Positions 8,555 through 32,414 of a stretch of 64,000 nt of DNA are shown here, piece by piece. The notes beneath the pieces were generated by a model, which saw nothing but the letters and a program-made list of their open reading frames with translations, made no database searches and was not told the DNA's origin. The stretch covers positions 64,001 to 128,000 of IMG/VR virus record IMGVR_UViG_3300017991_000003; one strand, given 5' to 3'. Made by a program: the position numbers and the translations under genes. Source of the stretch: a virus. Within the stretch, counting starts at the first letter, position 1. Every line of letters begins with the position of its first letter.

Positions 8555-9574
8555 CTAGAGGAGGGAGGAGTATCGATCTGAGAGGTCTTGTTGCGTCAGG
8601 TACTTCGGGTCCTGATCGAGGTGGTACAGCATGCTAGGCACGCCGTGCTTCGTCAATACTTTGTTGACATTTTTGGCGGCATTCTGACCCTCGACATCGG
8701 GGTCCAGGAGGATGCCCACCAGGGACGGTTCGGAGGCTCGAATCAGCTTGGCCTTCTCCGCTGAGAAGGCGAGCCCGTTGATACCCGCGGCACGAGCCCC
8801 AAGCTGGACCAGGTGCATCGCATCAAAGGGGCCTTCAACCAAGGACAGGGGCTTACCGGCCCCATAGGGCAGTAGATGCTCGCCGAACAGGTGACGGCCG
8901 CTCACGAAAGGCCAGATCGTCCAGTACTTGAGGCCGTTTCCTGCTAGGGGCCGAACCTGTGCTCCGACGCAGCGAACGATGCCGACGTCTGGAGACACCA
9001 GGATGGGGAATACGAGGCAGGGCGCCTTGGTCGTTTTCGGGTTGTCGTATCGGTCGGTCCCCATGCCGTCGTCGGTGTAACCGGCGGGGACGGTGGTGCA
9101 GTAGAACTGCTCGATGGCAAAATCGGGATCGACCCCCTTAGCGGCCAGCACATCCCGTCCGAGGGGGAGCATCGGCACACGTAGCAGGTCAGCTAGGAAC
9201 ACGGTGTAGTCCGTGTCCGGGGTCGTACGGGTCTGTCGAGTGACGCCGGCAGCGGAGAAGTCCAGGCTTTCTAGCGCCAACTCCCGCTCTCGGGCCTTCA
9301 TCTGGAGGGCCAATCCCGCATACTGACCACCACTGAGGCGGTTCAGCTCGAGGAGCGTATCCCCCAGTGATGACAGGTGTTTACACGCGTGGCACTTCAG
9401 GAGGGTCACTCCAGGACCCACCGTCGCGGTCATCGACGGCCTTCGATCAGATCCTTTCCCATGAGTCCACGGAGCCAGCAGGCAGGAAAACTTCACATGG
9501 CGGTCCCCCGCGGGTCGAAGCTCCCCCGCTTGGGGCAGCTGGGCGAGGACGGTTCGGAGCTCTACCTCTTGCAT
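8555..9574 (-). CDS. DNA primase, DnaG-like (zinc finger + TOPRIM)
   Basis: CHC2-like zinc finger (KFSCLLAPWTHG...LKCHACKH) and TOPRIM-like segment (LSLVEGPFDAMH...ILLDPDVEGQNAA). Track start 9634 overlaps the divergent gene at 9633, so internal ATG 9574 used; start uncertain. Confidence 0.7.
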   Translation of the reverse strand: MQEVELRTVLAQLPQAGELRPAGDRHVKFSCLLAPWTHGKGSDRRPSMTATVGPGVTLLKCHACKHLSSLGDTLLELNRLSGGQYAGLALQMKARERELALESLDFSAAGVTRQTRTTPDTDYTVFLADLLRVPMLPLGRDVLAAKGVDPDFAIEQFYCTTVPAGYTDDGMGTDRYDNPKTTKAPCLVFPILVSPDVGIVRCVGAQVRPLAGNGLKYWTIWPFVSGRHLFGEHLLPYGAGKPLSLVEGPFDAMHLVQLGARAAGINGLAFSAEKAKLIRASEPSLVGILLDPDVEGQNAAKNVNKVLTKHGVPSMLYHLDQDPKYLTQQDLSDRYSSLL

Positions 9575-9632
9575 CTTTTCGGGTTCTCGGGGTTGGACTT
9601 CATAAGCTAAGACAGGGGAGGACCCCACACAC

Positions 9633-12600
9633 ATGGCCGATAACGTCCAGCTCTACGACGCGCATCTAAACCTCTGGACCCTCAGGACATCCGAGGACAC
9701 AGAAATCCACACGCCGCACCACGTGTCGCGGCTGGCGGACGGGGAGGGGCGCTTCTACAGGCCCGGACGGCCGGTACCTGTGTCGATCTACGGGACGGAC
9801 GGGGTCGAGATCAACATCGAGGCCGGCTCGATCGCTGTCAGCACAGACCACAACGAGGACTCAGTAGCGGTCTTCGGGTCGTCGACCCCTGAGGGGCTGG
9901 AAAACTTCAGGTCGCTGGTGGTGGACCCCCAGGGGCACCTCCAGACCACAGTGGTCTCAGCGCCTGGGGTGGAGCCCGTCGGGGACTCGCCCGACGCGGG
10001 GCAGCTAGGTACGGTCATCCTAGGGGTCCAGGTAGGGGCAACGCCAGCTAGTCAGGTCACGGGGGACGGTCGGACAGCCCCTCTGATCATGGACGATCGG
10101 GGCCGGCTCTTCGTCTCTTTCGGCAACTCCGTCGCGGTTCTGCCCTTCACGCAAAAGGGTGACCTACTTACTTATGACGGATCTGACGAAGTTGTCCTGG
10201 GCCCGACGGTCGACGACGCGCTTCTGACACTGGACTCCAGTACCAGTACCGGCCTCAGGTGGGTGAGCCCGGTGACGAGCTCCCCCAGCCCCGTGCTCTT
10301 CCTACGCGAGGATCTAACATGGGCTCTGCCCTCAGCAGGGGCACCGGGCGGGGCTGCGGGCGGAGACTTGGGCGGGACCTATCCGAACCCGTCTGTGGTC
10401 GCTATCCAAGGGATTTCCACTTCTGCGGCTGCGCCAACGCCTGGGCAGACCTGGGTGTACACCGGCAGCGCTTGGAGTCCGGGAAGCCCGGCTACCGGAG
10501 CTGCTACGGACCACGGGACGCTCACAGGGCTCCTCGACGATGATCACACCCAGTACATCCTGGCTGATGGCTCTCGAGACTTCTCAGGCTCAATCGGCAT
10601 GGGTGGGAATGAGATCACGGATGTGGCCTCTCCTATCCTCGTATCCTGGGCAGCTAACAAGGGTTACGTTGATGATCAGATCACCGCGTCCGTCATCACG
10701 GACCACGGCGGGCTAGGCGGGCTCGGGGATGACGACCATACCCAGTACGTGTTGGTGGCTGGCACTCGTGCGTTCACGGGCGATCAGAGCCTAGGCGGTA
10801 ACAAGATCACGAGTCTGGGGTCCCCGACCACCGCAAGCGATGGAGCCAACAAAGGTTACGTCGACGCTAACGTGGTCACGGACCACGGCGCTTTGATCGG
10901 GCTGGGGGATGATGACCACACCCAGTACATCCTGACTGCGGGGACTCGAGCCTTCAGTGGTAACCAGAGCCTAGGCGGCAACCTGATCACAAGCCTAGGC
11001 TCGCCTACTACCGCAAGTGGTGGTGCTAACAAGGGTTACGTTGACGCGGCTATCACGTCGGCAGTGATCACGGATCACGGAGGGCTTGGCGGCCTGACGG
11101 ACGACGACCATACGCAGTACGTCCTGGTCGCAGGTACTCGAGCGTTCACAGGCAGCCAGAGCCTGGGCGGTAACCTGATCACGTCGCTAGGGTCTCCTAC
11201 TGTTGTAAGTGACGCAGCTAACAAAGGTTACGTTGATGCGCAGATCCCGACGAGCCTACCCCCTAGCGGGGCTGCTAGTGGTGATCTAGGCGGCACGTAC
11301 CCCGGGCCTACTGTGGTGGCCATTCAAGGCACCGGAGTCAGTGCAAACGCTCCAAGTACTGGTGATGGCCTGGTTTACACCGGAGCGGCTTGGAGTCCGA
11401 CCGCGGTCTATCGACCTGGCGGGACGGATGTGGCTGTGGCAGACGGGGGCACCGGGGCGTCGGACGCGTCCACGGCGCGTAGCAATCTAGGCCTGACCAT
11501 CGGGCTCGACGTCCAAGCCCACTCCGCAGTTCTTGACGCTACAACGGCCAGTTACACAACCGCGGCCGAGGGTAAGCTCTCGGGCATCGAGACCAACGCT
11601 GATGTCACGGACACAGCCAACGTGACGGCCGCTGGCGCTGTCATGATCGGCACAACGGCCGCGGCCGGGGACCTGAGCGGTACCTACCCGAGCCCGACGG
11701 TCGTGGCCATTCAGGGGACTGGCGTCTCGAGCACTGCGCCGAGCTCTGGGCAGGCCCTGATCTACTCCGGCACTGTCTGGAGCCCCAGCACGCTCCCCAG
11801 CGGGGTGACGGACCACGGGGCCCTGACCGGACTCGGAGACGACGACCATACCCAGTACATCCTGGTTGGTGGCACTCGCGCCTTCACGGGCAACCAGTCG
11901 ATGGGCGGCAACCTGCTCACGTCGTTGGGGAGCCCGGTGGCGGTAACAGACGCAGCTAACAAGGGTTACGTCAATGCCTCGATCACCGCGGCCGTCGTCA
12001 CGGACCACGGGGCCCTTGACGGGCTGGCCGATGACGACCACACCCAGTACCACAACGACGCTCGGGCGCTGACGTGGTTGGGGACGCGCGACACAGATGA
12101 CCTGGACCCGAGCGCCACCCGTCTCTACATGAGCCCGGGTGAGCGCACCAAGCTCGCCGGGATCGAAGCGCTTGCCGATGTGACCGATGCGGCCAACGTG
12201 GCCGCGGCCGGCGCTGTCATGGTCGGTGACGCTGCGGGCGGTGATCTTAGCGGTACCTACGCAAACCCGTCCGTGGTCGCGATCCAGGGTACGGGTTGCT
12301 CTTCAGCAACGCCGACCGCCGGCCAGACCTGGGTCTACTCCGGGTCCCAGTGGAGTCCTGGCTCACCCGCTGTTGGTGGCGCGTCAGATCACGGAACCCT
12401 GACCGGGCTGGGCGACGACGACCACACTCAGTACATTCTTGTTGACGGTACACGGGCCTTCACAGGCGCAGTTAGTCTCGGTGGGAGCCAGATCAACAGC
12501 CTGGCTTCGCCCACGCTCCCAGCAGATGCAGCCAACAAGGGCTACGTCGACGACCAGATCCCGACGAGTCTACCCCCTAGCGGGGCAGCGTCTGGCGACC

Positions 12601-14545: not shown

Positions 14546-15354
14546 TGACTGACAACATCCGAATCCAGACGGTCGACGGAGAGCGGTGGATCCGCACCTC
14601 CGAGATCGGCGGGGTCCACCACCCACACCACATCGCGCGCCTGTCCGACGGCTTGGGCGTGGTGTACAGTCCGGGCTATCCCGTCCCGGTCTCGATCTTT
14701 TCCGCAGATGGGTCGGCAACCATTACGCTTAGCGGCGGCGACCTAGCTGTTGGTCTGGACCATACCGAGGACTCGATCACGATCTGGGCGCACACCAACG
14801 CGGCGGGCTCCGGCAGCCCTGTCGCTGTCGTGGTCGACACCGATGGCCACCTCCAGGTCGACGTGCTCTCGAGCGATTGGCCGCAGCAACCTTTCGACGA
14901 ACCGGTACCAGCTGAGTACTCCGGCATGGTTATGCTCGGGGTCCAGACGGGTAGCCCTGAAGCACAAGCCACGGATGGCGCCTTCGCGCCCTTCCAGTTT
15001 GACAAGCAGGGTCGCCTGATCGTATCGATCGACCAGTCCTACCAAGGCGGGGCCTTGAAGCTGGTATCGGCCACCAAGACGAGCCCGTTCGTCGTGTGGG
15101 AGGATGATGTGCCCGCCTCTCTCCACTATGTCGACGTCTATCGTTGTTCTGGAACGTACACAATTGGCCTCCCTTCTCCCGCTGATCCCGCGGCAGCGGA
15201 TGGCCGAGTAGTCTGGATCAAGAACATAGGCACAGGCATGCTTACACTGAGTCCTGAAGGCGGGACCCTTGAGCTCAAAGCGGGGCTACTGCTAGCTAGC
15301 CGATCCTCTATCACCTTGCGCTCCAACACTGTAGACGACTGGGAGATTCTCTAA
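14545..15354 (+). CDS. tail fibre/spike paralogue sharing the N-terminal domain of 9633..13409
   Basis: First ~160 aa align with the fibre N-terminus (RTSE, HxPHHxxRLxDGxG, PGxPVPVSI, GHLQ, LGVQ, GRLxVS); TGATG coupling. Confidence 0.6.
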   Translation: MTDNIRIQTVDGERWIRTSEIGGVHHPHHIARLSDGLGVVYSPGYPVPVSIFSADGSATITLSGGDLAVGLDHTEDSITIWAHTNAAGSGSPVAVVVDTDGHLQVDVLSSDWPQQPFDEPVPAEYSGMVMLGVQTGSPEAQATDGAFAPFQFDKQGRLIVSIDQSYQGGALKLVSATKTSPFVVWEDDVPASLHYVDVYRCSGTYTIGLPSPADPAAADGRVVWIKNIGTGMLTLSPEGGTLELKAGLLLASRSSITLRSNTVDDWEIL

Positions 15355-16127
15355 TGACGTTCCTACCGCTCGACACAGACTATTACGCCGCCGTCGAGGC
15401 AGGCGAGGTTCCAGGTGCGACCCTGCTCAACAAGTTTGGCAGGGCGGAGATCGGGACATCGTTGACGCCTATCAGTCGGGAGCTGGTCTACCAGACCCCT
15501 ACAACGGCCACAGTGCTGGAGTTTGTATCGGATGATGCCAACGATACGAGCGCAGGGACTGGGGCTCGGGAGATCTCGATCATTGGCCTGAACTCCTCGT
15601 GGGAGGAGGTGATGCAGACCGTCACAACAAACGGGACAACAGCGGTAGCCCTCTCGACCCCGCTAATCAGGATGTATCGGTGGTACGTGACGAAGTCCGG
15701 AACCTACGCCACGTCATCAACGGGATCACATGCCGGGACGCTGACTATCCAAGAATCTGGTGGCGGCACGGTGTGGTCGTCAATCGGCGTAACACCCTTC
15801 CCCACCGGGCAGTCCCAAATCGGGATCACGACCATCCCCATCGGTAAAAGAGGCGTCCTGCTGTCTACTCACGTGTTCGTTGACACGTCTAAGAGTGTTG
15901 ATCTGTACCTGTTTCAGCGGCCTAACGCGGACGTCGTTACAGCGCCCTACACAGGAGCGATGCGCGTTGTTCGAGAGTTCCAGGGTGTCACAGGCCCGAT
16001 TACCTACGTTCCCCGCGGAGGGGCCGGCGCATTCGTCGGGCCTTGTGATATCGGGTTTATGGGCCAGGTAACAGTTGGCACGGCCGCTGTGTCCTGCGAC
16101 TTCGAGCTGCTTCTGCTAGATCTTTAG
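15354..16127 (+). CDS. hypothetical structural protein
   Basis: 257 aa; TAATG coupling to upstream gene; last gene of fibre operon. Confidence 0.55.
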   Translation: MTFLPLDTDYYAAVEAGEVPGATLLNKFGRAEIGTSLTPISRELVYQTPTTATVLEFVSDDANDTSAGTGAREISIIGLNSSWEEVMQTVTTNGTTAVALSTPLIRMYRWYVTKSGTYATSSTGSHAGTLTIQESGGGTVWSSIGVTPFPTGQSQIGITTIPIGKRGVLLSTHVFVDTSKSVDLYLFQRPNADVVTAPYTGAMRVVREFQGVTGPITYVPRGGAGAFVGPCDIGFMGQVTVGTAAVSCDFELLLLDL

Positions 16128-16164: not shown

Positions 16165-16208
16165 CACACCGTGGGTCATCACCCCCTAGGATCCTCCCCG
16201 CAGTGTCG

Positions 16209-18198: not shown

Positions 18199-19593
18199 CT
18201 AGTAGGCAGCCTGACCACCGCTGCTCGCCATGTCCTGGACAGGGCCGAGCTGCGCGAACCGCATGTCGTAGAGATCCCATTGAACACGATAGGGTTGGTC
18301 GACCGCACCGTCTCGGACCTTGCCGAGCTTCATGTCGATGACGCGGGCGTTGTTACCGGCATCCTTCGGCGGTACCAGGAAGACGAGGTTGTTGGAGTCG
18401 TGCGAGATGCTCTGGCTGAAAGCCACAGCATCAGCGTTCGACCGGGCCAGCGTGCCTTCATTTCGGCGCAGCTGCGTGGCCAGCATGTAGTGACGGTTGG
18501 ACATCAGCGTATGCAGACGCATCTGCCGCATGTTGCCCTCCACCTTCTGCCAGCGCTCCTTACCAGGGCCCTCCATGTAGTAGAAGCCGTCGATCAAGAC
18601 CAGGTCCGCGCCAAACTCCTCAGCCTGTGCGGCAACCTGATCAGGAGTCGTAGCCTGGTTAGGGCCCACGATGCGCAGGTTCTCACCAACGCGAGCGTGC
18701 GGCCCGTCTGCTTTCAGGCTACGCAATGCCTCGAAGTAGGCCGCCTTCTCCACGTCACTTAGCTTCTGCTTCATGAGGCGGTTGAAGCTAGTGCTCGAGA
18801 GCACCGCGGCTTGGCGTCGAGCCACATCGATGGGTGCCATCTCCAGACTGACGATCAAGACCCGAGCGCGGGCGGCGTCCTTCTGCTCCTGCGTCCACGC
18901 CGGGATGTCGGGTGGGCGGTGGAAGATGTAGGGATCTCCCAGGAGGCCGGCGGCACTGTTGAGCACGATGAACCAAGTCTTGCCGAGGCCGGTAGGAGCC
19001 ACACAGCTGGTGATCTGCGCAGGGTGCCAGCCCCCAAGCTGTTCCTGAATGAACAGGAACGGACAAGGGATGCCGAGCTTCACGCCGGCCAGCCGATCGT
19101 TGTAGTCCTGCTCGAGATCCTCAGCGTACTCTCGGAAGTCCTTGATCTCCGTCTTGTGTGCCGAGTACCTAGCTTGCAACGTATGAGCGTACAAGGACAT
19201 CGCGTCCTTGATGTCGAACGGGTCGGTGCGCTCGGTCAGCTGCTTGTGAAGATCCTGAAGGCTCTCTAGCACATCTACACGCACCGCCTCCTTAGCGACT
19301 TCGTCGTAGAGAACCGAGATGCTCGCTTCCGGGATCTCAGTACCAGCCAAGATCGTGGGAAGCTCAGGCCAGGCGCGCTGCGCCGTGTCAGGCGTAGGAA
19401 GCTCGTTGTACTGTGCTCGGTACCCGACGACCCACTCGATGATCTCCGTCATCGGCTCTTGAAAGAACCCGGGGTTGAGTCCGTTCTTGGCGACGTGGTG
19501 GTCGAAGGCGGCTAGGTTCCGGTCACTCAGGATCTTGGTCAGGAAGAGAGCCTCGACCCTGTCTCGAGAGTTGACGTTGGTGAACCCGGTCAC
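18199..19593 (-). CDS. replicative DNA helicase, DnaB-like
   Basis: 464 aa; Walker A (APTGLGKTWF), SLEM motif (LIVSLEMAP), Walker B-like (DLVLIDGF); likely GTG start overlapping upstream stop. Confidence 0.8.
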   Translation of the reverse strand: MTGFTNVNSRDRVEALFLTKILSDRNLAAFDHHVAKNGLNPGFFQEPMTEIIEWVVGYRAQYNELPTPDTAQRAWPELPTILAGTEIPEASISVLYDEVAKEAVRVDVLESLQDLHKQLTERTDPFDIKDAMSLYAHTLQARYSAHKTEIKDFREYAEDLEQDYNDRLAGVKLGIPCPFLFIQEQLGGWHPAQITSCVAPTGLGKTWFIVLNSAAGLLGDPYIFHRPPDIPAWTQEQKDAARARVLIVSLEMAPIDVARRQAAVLSSTSFNRLMKQKLSDVEKAAYFEALRSLKADGPHARVGENLRIVGPNQATTPDQVAAQAEEFGADLVLIDGFYYMEGPGKERWQKVEGNMRQMRLHTLMSNRHYMLATQLRRNEGTLARSNADAVAFSQSISHDSNNLVFLVPPKDAGNNARVIDMKLGKVRDGAVDQPYRVQWDLYDMRFAQLGPVQDMASSGGQAAY

Positions 19594-21980: not shown

Positions 21981-23402
21981 TCAAGGGTTGGGGATGCCTC
22001 GGCGAGCGGCTGTGTACAGCGTGTCGAAGGCCTCGCCCCGGAGCTTGTAGGACGCCATGATGACGTCGCCTTTCCCGGTCGGAGGTGTCTTGTAGGACCT
22101 GAGAGCCTTGACGGCCAGCTCGAGGACCTCGGGCTCGTCGACCCACTCAGGGTAGATGTCCAGGACGCCGTTACGGATCATCGCGTCATGATCCTCGGTC
22201 GAGACAGGAGCGGCGTTGATGTACTCCATGTCGGACATCACGTGGTTGCGCAGCCAGGGGAAGATGTTGTTCCAGGCGGCGGTCCAGTAGGCAGGGATGA
22301 AACCGACGTCTTGGCACCTCTGAGGGCGCATGAAGTCCTTCCAGTCCCGGATCCAGACCTTCAGGAAGACGGCCTGCTGCTGGTTGGTCCTGATCCCCGA
22401 GCTGGCTAGGAGCTCGCGGAACTGGTTCATGATCTGGGTCGTACGGGCGATGGAGTGGGCTAGGCGACCGTTGGGGAGGGTCTCGTTGAACAGGCACTTG
22501 ATCCCTGAGGCCTTACAGGCTGCTCGGATCATGCGGACGAAGTCCATGGACTTCCAGCGATCGACGTGGGAGAGGTCGAGGGGATCGACTCGCTCAGCCG
22601 GCTTGGGGTGGGCTGGGTCCTCCTGAGGGGCCCTGTACTTGGACAGGGTCTGCTTGGACTTCTTCTTGACCCGGTCATCCTGACGGGCCTTCTCCTCGCT
22701 GTAGGCGGACCCACTGGTCACGTCTTGGATGCGCTTCTTCGGGGCCCTATCCCTTCGGGTCATATCCCCCTCCTGAGGGCTTGGCGGGTCCTCCCGCCTC
22801 GACGAGGAATGCGAAGCATTCCGAGGAGAGTCAGAGTCCTTGTAGGACTCTTCCTCGTAAGGGCGGAAGCCGGCTTCACCCTGCTGGCGGCCCCTAGAAG
22901 CGGGGTCACCCCCCGCCGCGGCCACGGTACCGGCCTTGGCCGCCTCCGGGCAGTGCTCCTGTACCCAGGGGTCGTCTCGGTACCTGGCCCACAGTGCTCG
23001 CCAGCACCTGTGGGTGATCGTTCGGGGCCGGAGCTTGACCACTAGGTCCAGCGTGATCGGGACCGGCACGAGCAGGCTCGAGGCCCGGACGCGGTGGGTC
23101 CGATGAAGCAGGCCCACCTCCACAAGCCGGTTCAGGATCGTACGGATCTGCCGGCTCGACAGGTCGCAGACGTCTCCGAGCACACGCGCGGACGCCGAGC
23201 AGATCCCGTTACTGGACGCCTCCGCGAAGGAGACCACCTCCTGATAGACAAAAACCTCGGTCTTGGTGAGGACCGAGGAGCGTCTGACAGCCTTGGACAT
23301 CCGGTCGTAGCCGGAGACCTCCGGGGAGGGGGGCAAAATAATCGCATTTCCCTTAGCAGAAGGGACTTGCGTTCTACCAGTCTCGTGTCCTAGACTACTC
23401 AT
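21981..23402 (-). CDS. winged-helix DNA-binding protein (possible replication initiator or regulator)
   Basis: 473 aa; N-terminal HTH-like segment (SASARVLGDVCDLSSRQIRTILNRLVEVGLL), central low-complexity basic linker. Confidence 0.55.
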   Translation of the reverse strand: MSSLGHETGRTQVPSAKGNAIILPPSPEVSGYDRMSKAVRRSSVLTKTEVFVYQEVVSFAEASSNGICSASARVLGDVCDLSSRQIRTILNRLVEVGLLHRTHRVRASSLLVPVPITLDLVVKLRPRTITHRCWRALWARYRDDPWVQEHCPEAAKAGTVAAAGGDPASRGRQQGEAGFRPYEEESYKDSDSPRNASHSSSRREDPPSPQEGDMTRRDRAPKKRIQDVTSGSAYSEEKARQDDRVKKKSKQTLSKYRAPQEDPAHPKPAERVDPLDLSHVDRWKSMDFVRMIRAACKASGIKCLFNETLPNGRLAHSIARTTQIMNQFRELLASSGIRTNQQQAVFLKVWIRDWKDFMRPQRCQDVGFIPAYWTAAWNNIFPWLRNHVMSDMEYINAAPVSTEDHDAMIRNGVLDIYPEWVDEPEVLELAVKALRSYKTPPTGKGDVIMASYKLRGEAFDTLYTAARRGIPNP

Positions 23403-24193: not shown

Positions 24194-24900
24194 GGCTTGG
24201 TCAGGGTCAGGATGGTGATCATGTAAGGCGTGCGCAGGAGTAGGTACTTGTCCTGGACTGCCCATAGCACGGGGCTCTTGCCTAGGAGGATCAGGCACTG
24301 GCGGAGCTTGGTGACGTTGACGGCCGGGTAACGGCGCTCACCCGAGATGGGGTACTCAGTCGGCTCGGCTCGAAGACCCTGCTGTGGGCAGATCTCCATG
24401 AACTGGTAGTTCAGGGCTGACTGATGTGCTCGCGATTGCGGGATGACACCCAGCGGGTCTCCGGTCACGCGCTTGAAGGCTGCGGAACGAGCAGCCAGTT
24501 GCTGCATCAGATCTGCGTGCGGGTAGTCAGGGCCGGCCTTCACTGGCGCAGCCCTCGGGGTGTCGAGCTGCGTGCTGCTGTAGATCGTGGTGACGGTCAT
24601 GTTGCAGACCATTCGATCTAGCGGCCAGTCCTCGACCCAGGTCAGCTCTTTGGTGATCGAGGGGTGCAGTTGGTAGAGCAGGCGGCCTCGACCGCGTGCT
24701 AGGTAAGGGCGCTTCCACGCAGCCAACCGGTGCGAGCCTTCGACCCGTTGAGGTGTTTGGTACTCCGCAAAGGGGCCGGCCGGTTCTGTCGGTTCTGCGG
24801 CTTTTCGAGGCTGCTCCAGGTGGGTCAGCAGGGTAAGGACTCGCGCCTGATCACCCGCGCTCAGGGCCTCGATACGCTCAGCGATGGTCTTGTCGGTCAC
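24190..24900 (-). CDS. hypothetical protein
   Basis: Track ORF 24190..25041 trimmed to GTG 24900 (VTDKTIAERIEAL...) preceded by AAGGAG about 7 nt upstream. Confidence 0.5.
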   Translation of the reverse strand: MTDKTIAERIEALSAGDQARVLTLLTHLEQPRKAAEPTEPAGPFAEYQTPQRVEGSHRLAAWKRPYLARGRGRLLYQLHPSITKELTWVEDWPLDRMVCNMTVTTIYSSTQLDTPRAAPVKAGPDYPHADLMQQLAARSAAFKRVTGDPLGVIPQSRAHQSALNYQFMEICPQQGLRAEPTEYPISGERRYPAVNVTKLRQCLILLGKSPVLWAVQDKYLLLRTPYMITILTLTKP

Positions 24901-25128
24901 TAAAAAGCTCCTTGGTGAATCAACCGGAGCAGAGCTCCGGAGGTGAAAGGTGCCCCACCCGCCGAGAGGCGAGTGGGGCGGTTGCCAGGATGCACACGAA
25001 CTACTGGAGTGGTGGACCTGAGCTGAGCCGGAGTATGGCACCGGATCGAGCCGGATTCAGTGACTGCGTATAGCTCGTTGGGTTTGTCTACCTCGTGGAT
25101 GAGCTCGGAGTCACGACTCGAGCGGAGT

Positions 25129-25290
25129 CGCCTGCCTCGAGCTCATTGTTGCCATCATCTCGTCTGGTTGATGAGATGGCGGCGGCTCCTCCTCTCCTGT
25201 TATCCTGCGCTTACAGTATTCTCGGTGCCCGAGCTCGACCCATCTCGTCAACCTGACGCGATGATGGCAACAATGAGCTCGAGGCAGGCG
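25129..25290. repeat. 36-bp inverted repeat (35/36 matching) with ~90-bp spacer
   Basis: Left arm 25129-25164 cgcctgcctcgagctcattgttgccatcatctcgtc; right arm 25255-25290 is its reverse complement with one mismatch. Confidence 0.85.
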
Positions 25291-25440
25291 CCGCAGCGAG
25301 AGGCGCCGTGGCTCAGCCTCGTGGTGGGCAAACCCACGAGTTATTCGCAGACACTGAAGCCGGCCCGGTTGACATGCTCTGGCTCAGCTCAGGGTCTACC
25401 CGTAGGTGCAAGTGTGGCCGAGGTTGCTGTTGCGCTATCT

Positions 25441-25455
25441 GCGGCGATGCGCCGC
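25441..25455. repeat. short inverted-repeat motif GCGGCGATGCGCCGC, copy 1 of 3
   Basis: CGGCG-ATG-CGCCG core read directly; recurs at 25787 and 26040. Confidence 0.8.
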
Positions 25456-25786
25456 AGGACCCTCAAGTCAAGAGGGAATAGCTCTTCGTGTGCGGGGATT
25501 CCAAGGCAAGAGCCTGGATGGGCGCGCAGAGCATGATCCCGGTCGTGGAGGCGTGCCCGAGCTTTGTACGCGACCCGGTTCGGGTCGAGGATAAAGCGAA
25601 GGACCAGCACGCTGTAACGATCCGTGGATTATGCTCCGCGCTGTCCCAGCCAGCGCTTCGTTGGTAGTGGGAGGCGCCTCCGCTAGGAGGCGACGTCCTC
25701 GAGTTGCGCTACTGAAGCGACCACACATGCTGGCATGTGTAGCTTCAGGTGCGCAGTGCTCGAGGCCCACGACCAGTCGTACAGTG

Positions 25787-25801
25787 GCGGCGATGCGCCG
25801 C
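25787..25801. repeat. short inverted-repeat motif GCGGCGATGCGCCGC, copy 2 of 3
   Basis: Identical 15-mer to copy 1; flanks extend the inverted repeat to 17 bp. Confidence 0.8.
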
Positions 25802-26039
25802 CTGAAGACGTTGTGGATTAGGCCTCCGGTAGGCCCGTTCCAGTCTTTCTACTCCCTTGGAAAGGTAGTCACCTCTTGCGAGGCTGGCTGGCTACCTTGG
25901 TATCGGCGCTCGTAGAGACTACCCGGTCACACGCCCGCCGGAGGCGGGCTTGTGGACGCGTGGTCTCAACGTAATGTGTCACAGGAGACAGCTCGAGGCG
26001 CAGCTCGAGCGGGCCTCCGGCCACAGTTTCTATCACTTG

Positions 26040-26054
26040 ACGGCGATGCGCCGC
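26040..26054. repeat. short inverted-repeat motif (a)CGGCGATGCGCCGC, copy 3 of 3
   Basis: 13-bp core identical to copies 1 and 2; spacing between copies about 345 and 250 bp. Confidence 0.75.
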
Positions 26055-26265
26055 CGCGGAAGTCAGATGGGCTAGCTAGACCACTTCTTTCCTTGCTCCG
26101 CCGAAGATGTACCTGTTGGCAGCCCTGGTACTGGGCTTTTGGCTATGAAGAACGGATCATCGGGGCCAACTACCCTCCTGCTCTTCGTGCCTGTTGGTAC
26201 CGGCCTTTGGCCGGCAGCCGAGCCTGCTCCGGATTATGTGGAGCAGACTCGGTTCACTTGGTGCG

Positions 26266-26733
26266 CTAGCCGCGCTCCTTGACGGGGACCTTCATGATGA
26301 GGACGTCGCCCTCCTTGAGGGTCATCCCGTCGGTCACCTCCTGGCCGCCGATGTGCGGCTTCGACCCCTCGGGGGTGCCGAAGCGGCGAGCGTACTCGGT
26401 CCGCGCGTCGGCGACCGAGGTGCCGGCGGCGACGTTGAGGCGGCCGGGCTCGCCCAGACCGTCGGTGGCCGCGGCGGTGACCGTGGCGACCGGACCCGCC
26501 TGCGGGGTCTCCTGGGTCGTCGGCGCCGTCGTGGCGGTGGGAGCGGTGCGCGTCACGGCGACGGCCACCTCGGTGTCCGTGGGCAGACCCGTGGTCTGGT
26601 CCCACTTGGTCGGATCCGAGTGGTCGACCTCGTAGAGCACGGGGTTGCCGGCCGCGTCGTTCGCGGGGGAGTCGGCGTAGCGGATGCGACGGTTGAGGGT
26701 GTCGAACGCGGGGCGCTTGATGTTTCCGGTCAT
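26266..26733 (-). CDS. small protein with candidate ThiS/MoaD-like beta-grasp (ubiquitin-like) C-terminal domain
   Basis: 155 aa; C-terminal ...IGGQEVTDGMTLKEGDVLIMKVPVKERG resembles ThiS/MoaD but ends RG, not GG; last gene of the RT-JAB-E1 operon. Confidence 0.4.
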   Translation of the reverse strand: MTGNIKRPAFDTLNRRIRYADSPANDAAGNPVLYEVDHSDPTKWDQTTGLPTDTEVAVAVTRTAPTATTAPTTQETPQAGPVATVTAAATDGLGEPGRLNVAAGTSVADARTEYARRFGTPEGSKPHIGGQEVTDGMTLKEGDVLIMKVPVKERG

Positions 26734-27495: not shown

Positions 27496-29394
27496 TCAGG
27501 GGTAGATGGGGAGGGTGGCTTCTGTTTCGGACTTGTTGCAGAAGGCGATCTCCTCGAGGAGGACATCGTCTTCCATGTCGTCGGGGTCCTCGAGGACTCC
27601 GTCCATCTCGAGCACCAGTCGATCCATCTGATCGAGGATCTCTTGGTAGTCCTTGCGGTAGGGAATGCCGGCGTTCTGGGCCGCCTTGCGGACGACAAAG
27701 TAGGTCAGCCGGAACCACTCGAGCAGGACGCCGTCGGAGTCCTCTCGCGAGAATGCCTCGACGTAGCTCAGGTTGGTCTCGATCACGGTCTCGATCACGG
27801 TGTCGATCGACGTCTCGGGGAACACAGTTTTCACCGTCGGGTCGGCGTAGACGTATTTCGAGAGCTTGTCGATCCGGGCATCCAGTGCGATCGACTTGAA
27901 TAGCCGGTCGAGAAGGTCGTCGATGCGATTCATCACCTCGTCGATGACGTCTCGAACCAGCATGCTGTAGAGGGTCTGACGACTCTCGGATGCGCTGTTC
28001 TGCGCTTCTTCGACGATCTCTTCGATCGTGGGGGCGTTATCGAACCACTCACTGGTCGAGGCGTGGTTCATGAGCAGATGCAGGGCTAGGGCCGTAGCGT
28101 TGCTCGACGTCAGACTGTCCTTGAACGAGGTGCAGTACGCCCACACGGCTCGTGGGAAGGTCGTTTGCTGACCCTCCGCCTTCTTGATCAGCTGAAGGGG
28201 GTAGTGCGCTTGCGGTGAGATCACCATGCCGTAGAAGCCGGTGTGCATCCGCTGGATGCGGAACTTCTTATCAGCGACCAGCGAAGGGCCAGAGGCTGTC
28301 TTGCTGACAGGTACCAGTGAGGTAGTCGTCTTCTTCGTCGTCTGGCCAAGGCCACCCTGCGCCCCCGTACCCCCAGTCTTGCCGCCAGGAGTCGAAGGCG
28401 TACCCGCTTTGCCGCCGGTCCACTTTTTCGAGCCATAGCCGCCATACCTGCTGGTCTTGGCTTTCTTCTCCGCCTCCTTGATGGCCTCGCTGGCCAACTT
28501 GAACGTGGTAAGACAACGGGCGGCCTCGCCCATCCTGTCCTTCCAACGCCCCAGGCTTTCCATCGACCCACAGAAGGTCATCACAGTGCTCGTGTCGACG
28601 TCCTCGAGCTTGTCGACGCTGAGACCGACGGCGAGCTCGTCGGGATCGACCCCGGCCTTCAGCATGGCTTCGCACAGTCCGGGGTGGGCGACCCGGTTCA
28701 GCCACAGCTGAATCAGATCCAGGCCGCCCTCCACGAAAGGGATGTCGAACAACTCCTCGAGACCGGTCGCGTGGCGGATGCCCTGCGCCTTCTCGTTGCG
28801 GTAGCCGGGGAGGGCGGTGACGAACGACGGGCACACCGAGAAGGGCGGCTTGTCCACGTTCCCGAAGGTGATGTGGAAGCCCGTCTGGTTGAGCTCGTTG
28901 GCGTCGTCGGTCGAGCTGTGGTAGGCTCCACCAGCGCCGTGACTGTGCGCGGTGCCGACGCAGATGAACTCGACAAGCTCTCCATCCTCGCAGATGGGGC
29001 AAGCGTTGCCGGCTTCGAGCTCGATCGAGCCGATGCGACAGGTCGTGCAGAAGCTCTTGACGTTGGGATCGTACTTCACGTGCCCCGCGGAGGCGGTGTA
29101 CCACGGCGGACTGACGAGGGTGTAGGCGTCGTCGACCGGCCCTCGGTGGAAGAGCACGAAGGCCTCGGTCTTCCACAGGCGGTAGACCTCGGCGAAGTAG
29201 CGGTAGACGAACATCGTCTCCGCCATGGAGATCTTGGGCCAGTTGGTGAGGTCCAGGTCACGCTGGATCTGGTCGGTTTCACCGAGGTCCTCGGCCCGGG
29301 CGGGAACGAAGGCCTGAGCCCAGGCGGCCCCGCCTGGGCCGATGGTCTTCAGCACGTGGGCTTGGTTGCCCTTGTAGTAGATGTCGGTGGTCAT
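27496..29394 (-). CDS. JAB/JAMM (MPN+) metalloprotease-domain protein with N-terminal zinc ribbon and long C-terminal extension
   Basis: Exact JAMM motif HSHGAGGAYHSSTD (HxHx7Sx2D) after CTTC...CPIC; Gly/Lys-rich linker; ATG 29394 overlaps upstream stop (ATGA). Confidence 0.7.
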   Translation of the reverse strand: MTTDIYYKGNQAHVLKTIGPGGAAWAQAFVPARAEDLGETDQIQRDLDLTNWPKISMAETMFVYRYFAEVYRLWKTEAFVLFHRGPVDDAYTLVSPPWYTASAGHVKYDPNVKSFCTTCRIGSIELEAGNACPICEDGELVEFICVGTAHSHGAGGAYHSSTDDANELNQTGFHITFGNVDKPPFSVCPSFVTALPGYRNEKAQGIRHATGLEELFDIPFVEGGLDLIQLWLNRVAHPGLCEAMLKAGVDPDELAVGLSVDKLEDVDTSTVMTFCGSMESLGRWKDRMGEAARCLTTFKLASEAIKEAEKKAKTSRYGGYGSKKWTGGKAGTPSTPGGKTGGTGAQGGLGQTTKKTTTSLVPVSKTASGPSLVADKKFRIQRMHTGFYGMVISPQAHYPLQLIKKAEGQQTTFPRAVWAYCTSFKDSLTSSNATALALHLLMNHASTSEWFDNAPTIEEIVEEAQNSASESRQTLYSMLVRDVIDEVMNRIDDLLDRLFKSIALDARIDKLSKYVYADPTVKTVFPETSIDTVIETVIETNLSYVEAFSREDSDGVLLEWFRLTYFVVRKAAQNAGIPYRKDYQEILDQMDRLVLEMDGVLEDPDDMEDDVLLEEIAFCNKSETEATLPIYP

Positions 29395-29816
29395 GTGGTG
29401 ATCAGGGGTGGGTGGAATCGACGTAGGACGGTCAAGACCGCCTGGGTGTCTTCGTTGATGTCTTGCTCGGCTAGTAGGTGATCGAGCCGGCGCATCCAAT
29501 CACGTAGGGTCGTGAGCTGCTCGGGGCCCATGCTCGCCGGAGGGTCGACGACAGGACGTCGGTCGCTCTCGTCTCGGATCAAGTTGAAGCGGATGTTGTT
29601 GATCCTTCCACCGTCTAGCGCAACTGGATAGGTGCGTTGGAAGATCTGACCAAGAGCCTCGATCATCTCTCGAGTAAGACCCGTCCCCTCAAGATCGAGA
29701 AGGTGCGGTCGGTTCTCGAGGATCCGAGATAGAAGCTCCTCGCGTCTCCGGATAATGGCCTGGTGATCATTGTGTCGATCACGCGCGCCTTGCACGGTGT
29801 CCAGAATGGTGGTCAT
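29391..29816 (-). CDS. hypothetical protein (operon member, no Cys)
   Basis: ATG 29816 (MTTILDTVQ...) overlaps stop of upstream gene (ATGA); 141 aa. Confidence 0.5.
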   Translation of the reverse strand: MTTILDTVQGARDRHNDHQAIIRRREELLSRILENRPHLLDLEGTGLTREMIEALGQIFQRTYPVALDGGRINNIRFNLIRDESDRRPVVDPPASMGPEQLTTLRDWMRRLDHLLAEQDINEDTQAVLTVLRRFHPPLITT

Positions 29817-30655
29817 CGGACCACCTCTCGCCACTTCTCGGCCGCCGTACCGAGCTCCCGGCCCAGTACGATCTCATCGACGTCCGTCTGCCAGGTCATG
29901 ATGCGATCCTCGGTCCAGCGCTGCCATCGACAGAACTGCCAGAGCATGACAGTGTTCATGTTCAGGCCCAGATCACGCCGCCTGTCGTAGTCGGTGTAGT
30001 CACCTTCGGGGAGTTGCTCGAAGTACGGGACCTCTCGAAGCGCTTCGGGAACCTCAAACCCCTCAGGGAGCGGCCCGCTGAAAGGTGGCATGGTCAGGGA
30101 GTGCTCGTAGTGCGCGTTGTAGCCGGACTCGTTGATGAGCTTGAGGACCATCTCCGGGATCGACTGGAGCCCGTTGTACCGGTACTGGCGGAACACAGCA
30201 CCCGTGCACATGCCTCCCGTATCTTGCTGGTTCGGTAGGAATGATTTGTACAGAACCGGGGTGTACCCCGCCTCCAGATGCGGCTGCTGCTTGGTGAAGA
30301 AGCAGCGGGCATCGGAGAGGCGCCCGTCGTAGATCGAGATGATGAAGACGCGCGCAGGCATGGCGACCAGGAATCGAAGACCCTCCGGCCAGCCGCGGTT
30401 CTCGCGGACGTCGATGGAGATCCTCTCAGCCCGCGGAGGCACGACTGCCATGAAGTGCTCGTTGTGGGCATCCTTGGTGTGTGCCAGGATGTTTACGTAG
30501 GGGTGGTACGGAAAGAGGGCGCCAGCGCGCCGGCCTCGTTCCTCGAGGGCGGTCACGACGTCTTCTTCCCGCGTGATGCGGTTGACGTGAACCGTTTGAT
30601 GGATCACGTGACCATCGACGATGACGAGTCGATCGTGGGTTTCGAAGTTGGTCAT
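29813..30655 (-). CDS. hypothetical protein translationally coupled to the reverse transcriptase (candidate accessory/effector)
   Basis: 280 aa; ATG at 30655 overlaps RT stop at 30652 (ATGA); no recognised motif. Confidence 0.55.
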   Translation of the reverse strand: MTNFETHDRLVIVDGHVIHQTVHVNRITREEDVVTALEERGRRAGALFPYHPYVNILAHTKDAHNEHFMAVVPPRAERISIDVRENRGWPEGLRFLVAMPARVFIISIYDGRLSDARCFFTKQQPHLEAGYTPVLYKSFLPNQQDTGGMCTGAVFRQYRYNGLQSIPEMVLKLINESGYNAHYEHSLTMPPFSGPLPEGFEVPEALREVPYFEQLPEGDYTDYDRRRDLGLNMNTVMLWQFCRWQRWTEDRIMTWQTDVDEIVLGRELGTAAEKWREVVR

Positions 30656-31755
30656 GGGAGGTACGCGCGTGTCTCGGCGCTGTAGTTGGTGGGGGTGTTG
30701 TGGTGCACGTCTTGCGCGACACGCAGTTGTAGTTGGAGCGAGGCTCCTTGATCAGGGTTGATGAAGTTGACGTGGTTGACGAGGCCGGCGAGGTGGTCAA
30801 AGTTCACCGGCACAGGGCCTCGGTGCGTCAGCTCTCCCCCACGGGGACAGCGGCCGAAGTGCGCGTCGCAGATGATCTTGTGCAGCCGGGCGCGAAGCGC
30901 GCGCCGTCGAGGCCTGGGAGCGCTTAGCTTCTCGTTGACGACGACGCCGCAGACCGTCATGCGACTGCCGATGGAGCGGAATCGGATCTTTTCGGGGGCG
31001 ACCTTGTAGCCCAGCTTTTTCAGGAACCCGATGACGGGGTACTGGAACTGGTACAGCTTTCTGTAATCCGCCGTGAAGGTCATGTCGTCGCTATAGCGGG
31101 TGTACGCGATCGGCAGGAGTCTGATCTGAGTCTGCGTCTTTCGCCGGCGCTCTCCGTGGTTGTCGACCCACCGCATCGTGGGGTTGGTCCGCCAGGACTC
31201 GATCAGCTTCAGGATGCCGAAGTCCACCTGAGCCCCTGCCAGGTTGGAGAGGAAGGGGGACGTGGGGGCTCCTTGTGGTAGGCCACCATCCAAGAAGCAG
31301 GCGCGTTTGACTCTGTCAAGGAAGAGCCTGTCGGCACGTGACATCGGTTGCATGTACCCCCTGGTCAGGAAGTACTCCAGCTGCTCGAGGACGACGTGGG
31401 GAGACACGGACGGGAAGAAGTCCCGCAGATCGATGTCCAGCTTGTACCGGTGACCTACATGCGGGGCGGCGTTGGTGTGGATACCACGCTTGCGGACGTA
31501 GGCATGAGCTGCTGGGGAGGCCCCGATCCCGAGCGCTTTGAGCTCGCTGAGGATGAGCTTTTGAGCAGCCATTAGCTCCGGGCAAGGGATCTGGAGCTTT
31601 CGCATCTTCTGACGTGTCCGACCGTTCGAAAGCGTCTCGAGTACCGGGACTTCTCGACCATCCCGGGTACGCCTGGTCTTGGGGATTCGTGCGAATCGGT
31701 AGTGCTCAGCTTGAGCGGTGTCCGTCAGGACATTGAATGATGGGTAGCCAGCCAT
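30652..31755 (-). CDS. reverse transcriptase, retron-type
   Basis: 367 aa; RT motifs: HTNAAPHVGHRYKLDIDLRDFFPSV (NAxxH + motif 2), LPQGAPTSPFLSNL (QGxxxSP), YTRYSDDMTF (YxDD), TVCGVVVN (VTG-like); GAGGGT SD before ATG 31755. Confidence 0.85.
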   Translation of the reverse strand: MAGYPSFNVLTDTAQAEHYRFARIPKTRRTRDGREVPVLETLSNGRTRQKMRKLQIPCPELMAAQKLILSELKALGIGASPAAHAYVRKRGIHTNAAPHVGHRYKLDIDLRDFFPSVSPHVVLEQLEYFLTRGYMQPMSRADRLFLDRVKRACFLDGGLPQGAPTSPFLSNLAGAQVDFGILKLIESWRTNPTMRWVDNHGERRRKTQTQIRLLPIAYTRYSDDMTFTADYRKLYQFQYPVIGFLKKLGYKVAPEKIRFRSIGSRMTVCGVVVNEKLSAPRPRRRALRARLHKIICDAHFGRCPRGGELTHRGPVPVNFDHLAGLVNHVNFINPDQGASLQLQLRVAQDVHHNTPTNYSAETRAYLP

Positions 31756-31811
31756 GATCTACCCTCAGATGACGGCGCAGATTGCGCTCAAGGCAAGAAG
31801 TAGCATGTGCT

Positions 31812-32414
31812 TCACTCCGTGGTTTGAGGAAGTAGCGGGAGGTCCGCCTGGTGAAAGGCCTGGAAGATCGCCGAGGCGACGGTCTTCAGACGGCTTTCGA
31901 AGATCAGGTGGTCCGGGTGAGACATCTCCCCAGCGGGCGGGAGCTCTTTGAACAGCCGGTCGATGATGGCTACGAGCAGGTCGTTAGCGTCGGCCTGGCT
32001 GACCAGGAGGCTCCGGGGGCGGAGGTTGATGTTCAGATTGGAGGCTATGCCCCGTAGCACCGGTGGACGGGACCGGGCCGCGTGGACGGCGAAGGCGATT
32101 GAGGCTAGCCGGTGGTTGTTGTCGGCCGCAGACGGTGTGGTGGTGGCGGGGTTGTGCTTGCGGAGCGGGTCCGTGTCGGGGACCGGGTCGGGCAGCACCA
32201 GGGGACCTACGCCGTTTTTGGCCAATCGGTGGTAAAGGCTTAGAGCTGCCAAAGCCCCGAGTCCCATAGCCGGCAGCAATGCGCGGTTGGAGACTCGAGC
32301 GGGGCGTGGTGCGTCGACTGAGTCGGTCGACCACCAGGCGGACAGCCCTTCACGAACGGGCCCTTCATAGAGGGGCCACGTCTTCGTCAAGGCATCAATG
32401 ACGGGGACGTACAT
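31812..32414 (-). CDS. hypothetical protein (uncertain; region may instead be non-coding leader of the RT operon)
   Basis: 200-aa ORF with no Shine-Dalgarno before its ATG. Confidence 0.3.
   Translation of the reverse strand: MYVPVIDALTKTWPLYEGPVREGLSAWWSTDSVDAPRPARVSNRALLPAMGLGALAALSLYHRLAKNGVGPLVLPDPVPDTDPLRKHNPATTTPSAADNNHRLASIAFAVHAARSRPPVLRGIASNLNINLRPRSLLVSQADANDLLVAIIDRLFKELPPAGEMSHPDHLIFESRLKTVASAIFQAFHQADLPLLPQTTE

Follow-up and report, generated by a model that had tools for sequence, protein, structure and literature searches.

A candidate tandem array of retron-type RNA genes behind the reverse transcriptase operon of a phage-like genome

The window analysed here is a stretch of 64,000 nucleotides (positions 64,001 to 128,000 of the IMG/VR virus record IMGVR_UViG_3300017991_000003) from a genome that is phage-like in encoding a DNA polymerase, a tail-fibre protein and an exonuclease. 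The question that it raises is what purpose could be served by a gene-free island of 1.36 kb (24902..26265, minus strand), which reaches from the stop of a ubiquitin-like (Ubl) protein gene (26266) to the GTG start of the next gene (24901), at the end of an operon encoding a reverse transcriptase (RT), a JAB-domain protein, an E1 enzyme and the Ubl-like protein. The retrons known so far are anti-phage systems of bacteria, in which a single short template RNA adjoins the RT. We suggest, with a probability of roughly two in three, that the island is a non-canonical, phage-borne tandem array of three retron-type msr-msd RNA genes which would serve the RT of the operon.

Three units on the strand of the operon

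When the island is read on the minus strand, i.e., that of the RT-JAB-E1-Ubl operon, it resolves into three abutting units, in each of which a short 5′ arm (a1) is followed by a G, a variable stem-loop, a 7-bp triloop hairpin (SL2), one or two long hairpins and a 3′ arm (a2). An earlier note on this DNA, made from its letters, had pointed to three copies of a GCGGCG-ATG-CGCCGC element; these are present as exact 14-mers of the motif CGGCGATGCGCCGC (25442, 25788 and 26041), all in one orientation and nowhere in the 64-kb window but in the island, and each is the last msr stem-loop of one unit. The arm a1 and the G are located some 20-60 nt upstream of each copy of the motif, and the exact complement a2 lies behind the long hairpin(s). 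Unit 1 (25903..26104, minus strand, 202 nt) runs from a1 TCGGCG (26104 to 26099), the candidate priming G (26098) and an msr stem-loop, through SL2 GGCGGCG-CAT-CGCCGTC (26055 to 26039) and an msd-like double hairpin of 130 nt, to a2 CGCCGA (25908 to 25903). Unit 2 (25499..25862, minus strand, 364 nt) has a1 TTCCAAGG (25862 to 25855), the G (25854), a first stem-loop (SL1) GGCCT-ACCGG-AGGCC, SL2 (25802 to 25786), an msd-like region of 279 nt with two long hairpins, and a2 CCTTGGAA (25506 to 25499); the perfect 12-bp palindrome ggaggcgcctcc of the earlier note was found within this msd-like region, at 25670-25681. Only 5 nt separate the end of this a2 from the a1 of unit 3 (24992..25493, minus strand, 502 nt), in which a1 GCACACGAA (25493 to 25485), the G (25484), SL1 CCCTC-TTGACTT-GAGGG (25476 to 25460) and SL2 TGCGGCG-CAT-CGCCGCA (25456 to 25440) precede an msd-like region of 439 nt, made of a ~45-nt linker and a giant hairpin, and a2 TTCGTGTGC (25000 to 24992).

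This layout is found in all three window units and throughout a set of 14 units in 7 loci, 3 of them from the window and 11 from relatives (denoted below by locus numbers), with arms of 6-11 bp and with one variable stem-loop and the 7-bp triloop hairpin in every unit. Unconstrained minimum free energy (MFE) folding with 15-nt flanks closes the a1/a2 stem in 13/14 units and forms SL2 in 14/14; in the window, all 6 of the a1/a2 pairs and all 7 of the SL2 pairs are formed in unit 1, as are 9/9 and 7/7, respectively, in unit 3. The G stands directly behind a1 in each of the three window units, and in 9/14 units overall.

The stems are kept while their sequences change. The arms of unit 2 covary across four loci (TTCCAAGG/CCTTGGAA in the window, TCTCAAGG/CCTTGAGA in L006, CTCAAGG/CCTTGAG in L004 and CTCAGTG/CACTGAG in L007), the L007 homologue of unit 1 (a1 ATCTAGCG, a2 CGCTAGAT) differs from the window by two compensatory pairs, and RNAalifold, run on a MAFFT alignment of the conserved core of unit 2, recovers SL1 and SL2 with compensatory pairs. 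SL2 appears as three copies of GGCGGCG-CAT-CGCCGTC in L007, as ACGGCG-CAG-CGCCGT, GGCGC-GCA-GCGCC and GTGGCG-CAG-CGCCAC in L004, as GACGGTG-AAT-CGCCGTC in L006 and as four copies of CGGCG-GUAG-CGCCG in L099. Its stem positions undergo compensatory changes between copies as well as between genomes (e.g., ACGGCG/CGCCGT against GTGGCG/CGCCAC in L004), which argues for a hairpin and not for a protein-binding iteron. Within one genome, units are unalignable except for the SL2 hairpin, as would be expected if one protein acting in trans, plausibly the RT, recognised all of them.

The msd-like part of unit 3 is for the most part a giant imperfect hairpin of ~150-160 pairs (25017..25393, minus strand, 377 nt). 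The near-perfect 36-bp inverted repeat (25129-25164 / 25255-25290) to which the earlier note had drawn attention does exist, with 35/36 positions complementary and 30 nt exact (none is expected in shuffles), and it is the core of this much larger structure, being the centre of four nested inverted repeats that span 25017-25393; self-complementarity extends at 73.6% over 394 nt (E = 4e-56). The plus strand has an MFE of -281.5 kcal/mol and the minus strand one of -248.9 kcal/mol, with z ~ -18 for both. Such a hairpin was found in five lineages, at the same place and with unrelated sequence, namely in the window, in L004 (16084-16479, with an RT 51% identical to that of the window), in L007 (9609-10043, RT 49% identical), in L099 (13916-14315, RT 40% identical) and in L015 (15514-16007, RT 36% identical, GC 40%), and in all five the plus strand folds 30-55 kcal/mol better than the minus strand; it is absent from L006, L016 and L017. 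The five giant units share no alignable sequence, yet they have the same layout. In each, with hairpin boundaries set from the inverted-repeat arms, no complement longer than a1/a2 exists between the 150 nt that precede the hairpin and the 40 nt that follow it (the arms are GCAGCAGTTGA/TCAACTGCTGC in L007, ACTTCTAA/TTAGAAGT in L004, AAGGATC/GATCCTT in L015 and CAAACGCA/TGCGTTTG in L099), and a shuffling test gives p = 0.011, 0.043, 0.001, 0.23 and 0.042 for the window, L004, L007, L015 and L099, respectively, or 3e-5 when combined by Fisher's method. The remainder of the island (25395-26270, ~870 nt) is likewise more structured than shuffles, with z = -10.6 on the plus strand and -12.8 on the minus strand. 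Two details of relatives may be added: the contig of L014 ends at 16176, ~150 nt past an SL2-like hairpin, possibly by an assembly break at a giant hairpin, and in L007 a gene of 201 aa, probably spurious, is called on the opposite strand inside the giant hairpin (9422-10027).

That the island holds no credible open reading frame (ORF), as the earlier note had claimed, is borne out by the absence of codon periodicity and of family matches. The codon-position GC contrast, 0.25-0.57 in the flanking genes, falls to 0.01-0.20 inside 24900-26260, and none of the island's five largest ORFs has a Pfam match below E = 0.06. A small ORF was considered for a weak periodicity blip at 25420-25779 and rejected, the frame statistics fitting no ORF there and no family match being found. 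At gathering score, Rfam 15 has no match in the window, and in seven related loci it finds tRNAs only; at E up to 10 the best match of the island is an unrelated small RNA at E 0.075, which speaks neither for nor against a retron RNA, given that it is not established whether Rfam holds any retron non-coding RNA (ncRNA) model. A tRNA/tmRNA scan of the window found none, and a DNA similarity search against phage and plasmid records gave no match. Among relatives, a pattern scan of IMG/VR for the conserved block described in the next section returned four extra matches, all of them by chance and inside coding sequence. The gaps of distant RT-JAB-E1 loci with other gene orders (L030/L100, L101 and L103) fold into hairpins and tRNAs with no convincing unit, and these loci were excluded from the unit counts.

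Outside the units, the leader between the Ubl stop and unit 1 (26105..26265, minus strand) has two GC hairpins (26218-26252 and 26199-26215) and is conserved no further than L007. Behind the array comes another GC hairpin (24952..24979, minus strand) and then the tract CACCTTTCACC (24941-24951), which is common to the window and L004; these may serve as a terminator or as the leader of the next gene, and a search for intrinsic terminators did not pick out the hairpin. Consensus scans, run over the island and the region upstream of the operon, returned neither promoter nor terminator, and no promoter-like site on either strand. The gene downstream, of a 236-aa protein, begins with a GTG (24901-24899) behind a ribosome-binding site that is conserved in relatives; the site and the start together (GGAGCTTTTTAGTGAC, 24899-24914) are conserved between the window and L007, and only their core TTTTTAGTG in L004 and L006.

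The reverse transcriptase, the strand and the wobble pairs

The RT (30652..31755, minus strand), the presumed enzyme on the island RNA and the only RT of the gene cluster, belongs by its sequence to the retron clade. It matches PADLOC retron RT models at E = 2e-44 and, in NCBIfam, the retron St85 RT at E = 2e-38 as against 2e-10 for group II RTs; its best PDB relatives are the RTs of retrons Ec86, Kva2, Ec78, Ec83 and Ec67. It has NAxxH (as TNAAPH, between RT2 and RT3), YSDD and V-C/T-G with an invariant G, where the published criteria for retron RTs are NAxxH in region X and VTG, with the G most conserved, in region Y (Mestre et al. 2020, PMC7736814). A diversity-generating retroelement was considered and rejected, as there is no pair of template and variable repeats, no island segment longer than 19 nt recurring elsewhere in the 64-kb window, and as retron models fit the RT far better than those of other RT classes do. 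Because the regions upstream of the RT, where retron ncRNAs usually lie, are short and unstructured (z = -0.8 and +2.4), the island is the only candidate template. The suggestion of the earlier note that it might hold a structured ncRNA, possibly the missing retron ncRNA, is supported by the layout, the covariation and the linkage to the RT, and the picture is richer than the one it gave, with three units in tandem.

RT and gap go together over a wide range of relatives. RTs 36-51% identical to that of the window are encoded on large metagenomic and viral contigs, in operons with the order RT, a protein of 260-290 aa, one of 120-160 aa, JAB (~600 aa), ThiF and Ubl, and then a gene-free gap of 0.6-1.6 kb, which occupies the same position in every syntenic relative. 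This gene order is found in L004-L008, L014-L020 and L022-L023, with replication genes next where the contig continues, and operon and gap are conserved down to 36% RT identity and 40% GC (GC of the loci ranges over 40-62%). No cellular genome of a species-representative set has an RT more than 35% identical. In the window, all on the minus strand, a 200-aa protein (31812-32414) is followed by the RT, by proteins of 280 aa (29813-30655) and 147 aa (29391-29834) with no family match, by the 667-aa JAB-domain protein (27496-29499), by ThiF/E1 (26757 to ~27500) and by a 155-aa Ubl-like protein ending in KERG, with a Thr/Ala-rich low-complexity middle (26266-26733). The best NCBIfam matches of the JAB/ThiF module are the PRTRC ThiF protein and PRTRC protein A, and in PADLOC the CBASS E1-E2 models, all below cut-offs; no E2 was recognised in the operon. 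Downstream of the island lie an O-like replication initiator (21981-23402, minus strand) and a DnaB-like helicase (18199-19593, minus strand), so that the surroundings sketched in the earlier note, with the RT-JAB-E1 operon just upstream and the helicase and winged-helix genes near by, are as it had them. Further afield, on eight viral contigs (L101, L103, L105, L112, L114, L165, L038 and L039) with GC down to 31%, a retron-like RT 28-33% identical to that of the window is linked to JAB and/or E1, with JAB and E1 upstream of the RT, and in L101 a gene-free gap of 1.35 kb with tRNA-like sequences lies 2.1 kb downstream of the RT.

Close relatives differ in the island more than in its surroundings. 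Between L017 (15093-15868) and L020 (7928-8923), the JAB, E1 and Ubl proteins are 92-98% identical and the flanking DNA 93-96%, and the islands differ, one of them having a 325-nt insertion right behind the Ubl stop and a segment of ~390 nt being swapped for non-alignable sequence, a pattern suggestive of turnover of the RNA array by cassettes.

Nothing in the island is better conserved than the block GGTAGCCAGCC (25886..25896, minus strand), in the spacer between units 1 and 2, which does not vary among the window, L004, L006 and L007, amid surroundings that have diverged. Its reverse complement is found, letter for letter, in the start region of the RT gene, (A)TGGCTGGCTACC (31755 to 31743), where nucleotides 31753 to 31743 are complementary to 25896 to 25886. 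Complementarity of 11-13 nt between block and RT start is found once per locus in these four loci (block / RT start at 15600 / 10001 in L004, 15494 / 10001 in L006 and 9104 / 3143 in L007), and 0-3 of 300 shuffles reach that length. RT codons 2-4 (GCT GGC TAC) have identical synonymous sites in the four genomes and codons 5 and 6 vary; both the block and the MAGYP start are missing from the more distant relatives. Seen as DNA, block and RT start are an inverted repeat of 11-13 bp with the entire 5.9-kb operon between its arms. For their complementarity to act between RNAs, both have to be transcribed from the same strand. The complementarity suggests, by sequence, RNA-RNA pairing between the array and the translation start of the RT, with a possible feedback on RT translation, and it is the one partial match for the regulatory hub that the earlier note had listed among its candidates, which otherwise finds no support. 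Also near this start, just upstream of the RT ribosome-binding site (~31770-31788, minus strand), the window shares with L004, L006 and L007 a small conserved hairpin, GCGCA-ATC-TGCGC, with CGTCAT behind it. Similar to the 3′ half of the SL2 motif (CGCCGTCA), it may serve as an operator to which the RT binds.

Four observations place the RNA of the island on the RT strand: this complementarity, the strand of tRNA genes in homologous islands, a U-tract terminator on the RT strand behind the units of L016, and the G·U pairs of the msr stems, of which the RT strand has 22 and the opposite strand 13. The tRNA genes in question are those of L014 (Ala and Gly, 15796-15949) and L015 (Ala, 15087-15160), the latter ending 4 nt before the a1 of the first unit.

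In the long hairpins, the asymmetry is the opposite. The five giant hairpins have 9, 17, 16, 13 and 12 G·U(T) pairs on the cDNA-sense (anti-RT) strand against 2, 1, 6, 2 and 2 on the RT strand (~5:1), the window hairpin accounting for 9 on the plus (cDNA-sense) strand and 2 on the minus strand. When the msd regions are all taken together, the counts are 107 and 36, respectively, and the contrast with the msr stems is significant (Fisher p = 4e-5). Mutation bias was considered as the cause and rejected, since the composition of four-fold sites in the neighbouring genes (G/C = 1.5 and T/A = 0.68 on the cDNA-sense strand) fails to predict a joint enrichment of G and T. Selection on a folded DNA product, in which G·T is a tolerated mismatch, would explain the pattern, and the sequences give indirect indication of it.

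What the array could do, and what else it could be

If the array is of the retron type, its transcript would be of the minus strand and would either form the 3′ end of the RT-JAB-E1-Ubl operon or lie directly behind it, and each unit would fold by a1/a2 pairing, enclosing the G, the variable stem-loop, SL2 and an msd-like region of 130, 279 or 439 nt. The retron-type RT of the operon would recognise the shared hairpin (the GGCGGCG-CAT-CGCCGCC motif), prime from the 2′-OH of the G adjoining a1 and copy the msd portion into single-stranded DNA (msDNA), which for unit 3 would be of ~400-440 nt and would fold into a DNA hairpin of ~150-160 pairs. Meanwhile, the 11-mer between units 1 and 2 would pair with the start codon region of the RT mRNA, thereby coupling the abundance of the array to RT translation. 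By analogy with bacterial retrons, the product could serve as scaffold or control of the co-encoded Ubl-conjugation module, or as a DNA decoy. Transcription, priming, msDNA synthesis and this downstream role are the parts of the reading that we infer.

Several points weigh against it. The evidence is sequence comparison alone, and RNAs other than those of retrons, too, can be multibranched with a closing terminal stem. The array begins ~4.4-4.5 kb downstream of the RT stop, behind five ORFs, where retron ncRNAs are normally contiguous with ret, and tandem arrays of retron ncRNAs were not found in the literature searched (full text, with incomplete coverage). The arms are short enough for several alternative 8-mer complements to occur by chance in each island, one unit (U1 of L007) is not closed in its MFE structure, and in those of the 14 units that have no G directly behind a1, the G is 2-4 nt away or absent. 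The giant hairpin is dispensable for the operon, as the three loci that do without it show, and its stem is 3-4 times longer than the described range of 10-50 bp. Finally, the wobble asymmetry would be no different if the functional molecule were an RNA or a single-stranded DNA of the plus strand.

The serious rival is that the units are structured regulatory or processed ncRNAs of the operon's 3′ region that are never reverse transcribed (protein-binding RNAs, RNase III substrates or an antisense regulator of the RT), and that their likeness to retrons is generic. Conserved structure and covariation do prove a folded nucleic acid and not reverse transcription, an invariant block complementary to the RT start is a classical feature of antisense regulators, and the tRNA genes in homologous islands could mean that these are a general zone of RNA genes. 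Unexplained, in that case, would be the order of a1, G, stem-loops, long hairpin and a2 in 14 units, the fact that they always accompany a retron-clade RT for which no other candidate template is seen, and the wobbles, which favour the opposite strand in the long hairpins and the RNA strand in the short stems. We therefore regard this rival as unlikely, if well worth keeping in mind.

It is improbable, in our judgement, that the giant hairpin acts instead as DNA, as a strand-specific single-strand initiation signal, an origin element or a cruciform at the origin, on the plus strand. It lies upstream of the DnaB-like helicase gene and at a distance of 1.6 kb from the gene of the O-like initiator, a position that would suit such a role, and an excess of G·T wobbles on one strand is what a single-stranded DNA hairpin would be expected to have. 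Nevertheless, L006, L016 and L017 keep the initiator/helicase module without the giant hairpin, and every giant hairpin has a1/a2 arms around it and two stem-loops before it, neither of which an origin needs. The replication origin with initiator-binding sites that the earlier note had proposed meets the same absence, and an iteron origin was rejected on the grounds that the repeated motif keeps its pairing by compensatory changes, and not its sequence, and that the island has the GC of the genome (0.61), no AT-rich element and a cumulative skew that is monotonic, with no inflection. The packaging site of the same note is unsupported as well, and no terminase gene was recognised near the island.

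Very improbable, finally, are a selfish palindromic element (a remnant of a miniature inverted-repeat transposable element, for which long imperfect palindromes are typical, or of an insertion sequence), which is at odds with a single copy in 64 kb, with the absence of copies from phage and plasmid databases and with a position conserved while the sequence has fully diverged, the opposite of what a mobile repeat would show, and a plus-strand RNA antisense to the operon, for which the better folding of that strand in all five lineages speaks, but which has no promoter-like site on either strand and would have its elements in an order inverted relative to any known RNA class.

Returning to the retron-type array, a broader proposal can be made, though tentatively, and we see for it something short of an even chance. 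It is that of a lineage of large phages which has, next to its replication genes, a non-canonical retron as a conserved core module, made of an RT, JAB/E1/Ubl proteins and a modular, fast-turnover array of one to three templates, one of which would yield an msDNA of ~400-500 nt in the form of a mismatch-studded hairpin of ~150-200 pairs, much larger than the msDNAs known. The phage itself would use it, for example as a decoy or sponge for DNA-sensing or mismatch-binding proteins of the host, or as a Ubl scaffold, instead of its serving the host in abortive infection, and RT synthesis would be tuned by the antisense block.

If the array is what it seems to be, phages themselves would maintain retrons as conserved equipment, and one RT could work on several templates, arrayed in tandem and exchanged between close relatives. 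There could be natural msDNAs several hundred nt long, of relevance to retron-based genome editing, where long donor DNA is wanted, and reverse transcription would be linked to a ubiquitin-like conjugation module, a pairing that has no description in the searched literature. The strand-specific wobble signature would, in addition, offer a computational way of telling the reverse-transcribed from the non-reverse-transcribed parts of candidate retron RNAs.

Comparison with known systems

Long imperfect, strand-specific hairpins in non-coding DNA near replication genes are also known from the single-strand origins (sso) of rolling-circle plasmids and from hairpin primosome sites. These are of 150-300 nt and have neither a linked RT nor any need for a1/a2 arms or for stem-loops upstream; the giant hairpin differs from them, too, in its absence from relatives with the same replication genes.

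With its ThiF-type E1, its JAB-domain protein and its small protein ending in Gly, the operon resembles the PRTRC ThiF/JAB cassette, Bil and the E1/JAB of type II CBASS. Linkage of such cassettes to an RT and an RNA array is not described in the searched literature, which likewise holds no phage RT with a Ubl/E1/JAB module and no msd hairpins of such length, and we know of no JAB/E1/Ubl partner module among the 13 retron types.

Control of translation by a retron RNA has a parallel in the hybrid RNA of the type VI retron Retron-Vpa2, which is reported to control the translation of a co-encoded gene (bioRxiv 10.1101/2025.10.22.683967). In Retron-Vpa2, the repressed gene is a toxic effector inside the same structured RNA, whereas the putative target here is the RT gene, 5.9 kb away, as suggested by complementarity and by frozen synonymous sites.

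The closest likeness is to the bacterial retrons themselves, such as Ec86/Eco1 and Mx162. In the published description of retron ncRNAs, the ends a1 and a2 are complementary, a conserved branching G adjoins a1, and between one and three short msr stem-loops are combined with a single or double long msd hairpin with a stem of 10-50 bp, msr and msd being contiguous with ret in one RNA and usually directly upstream of it (PMC7736814). The window system shares with them the retron-clade RT, the a1/a2 ends, the short msr stem-loops and the long msd hairpin(s), as well as the arrangement of RT and RNA on the same strand of one gene cluster with genes for accessory proteins; the G directly behind a1 in the window units is a candidate for the branching G. 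It differs from them in that three units stand in tandem instead of one, in that these come last, behind the Ubl gene on the RT strand and probably as the 3′ end of the operon, instead of adjoining the RT gene, and in that it is carried by a large phage-like genome and known here from its sequence. The window is part of IMG/VR contig IMGVR_UViG_3300018080_003942 (91.6 kb), and an RT of identical sequence is encoded on a contig of 193 kb. The shapes of the msd regions are, even so, those of retrons, units 1 and 2 having double hairpins and unit 3 a single one, whose stem extends beyond 10-50 bp.

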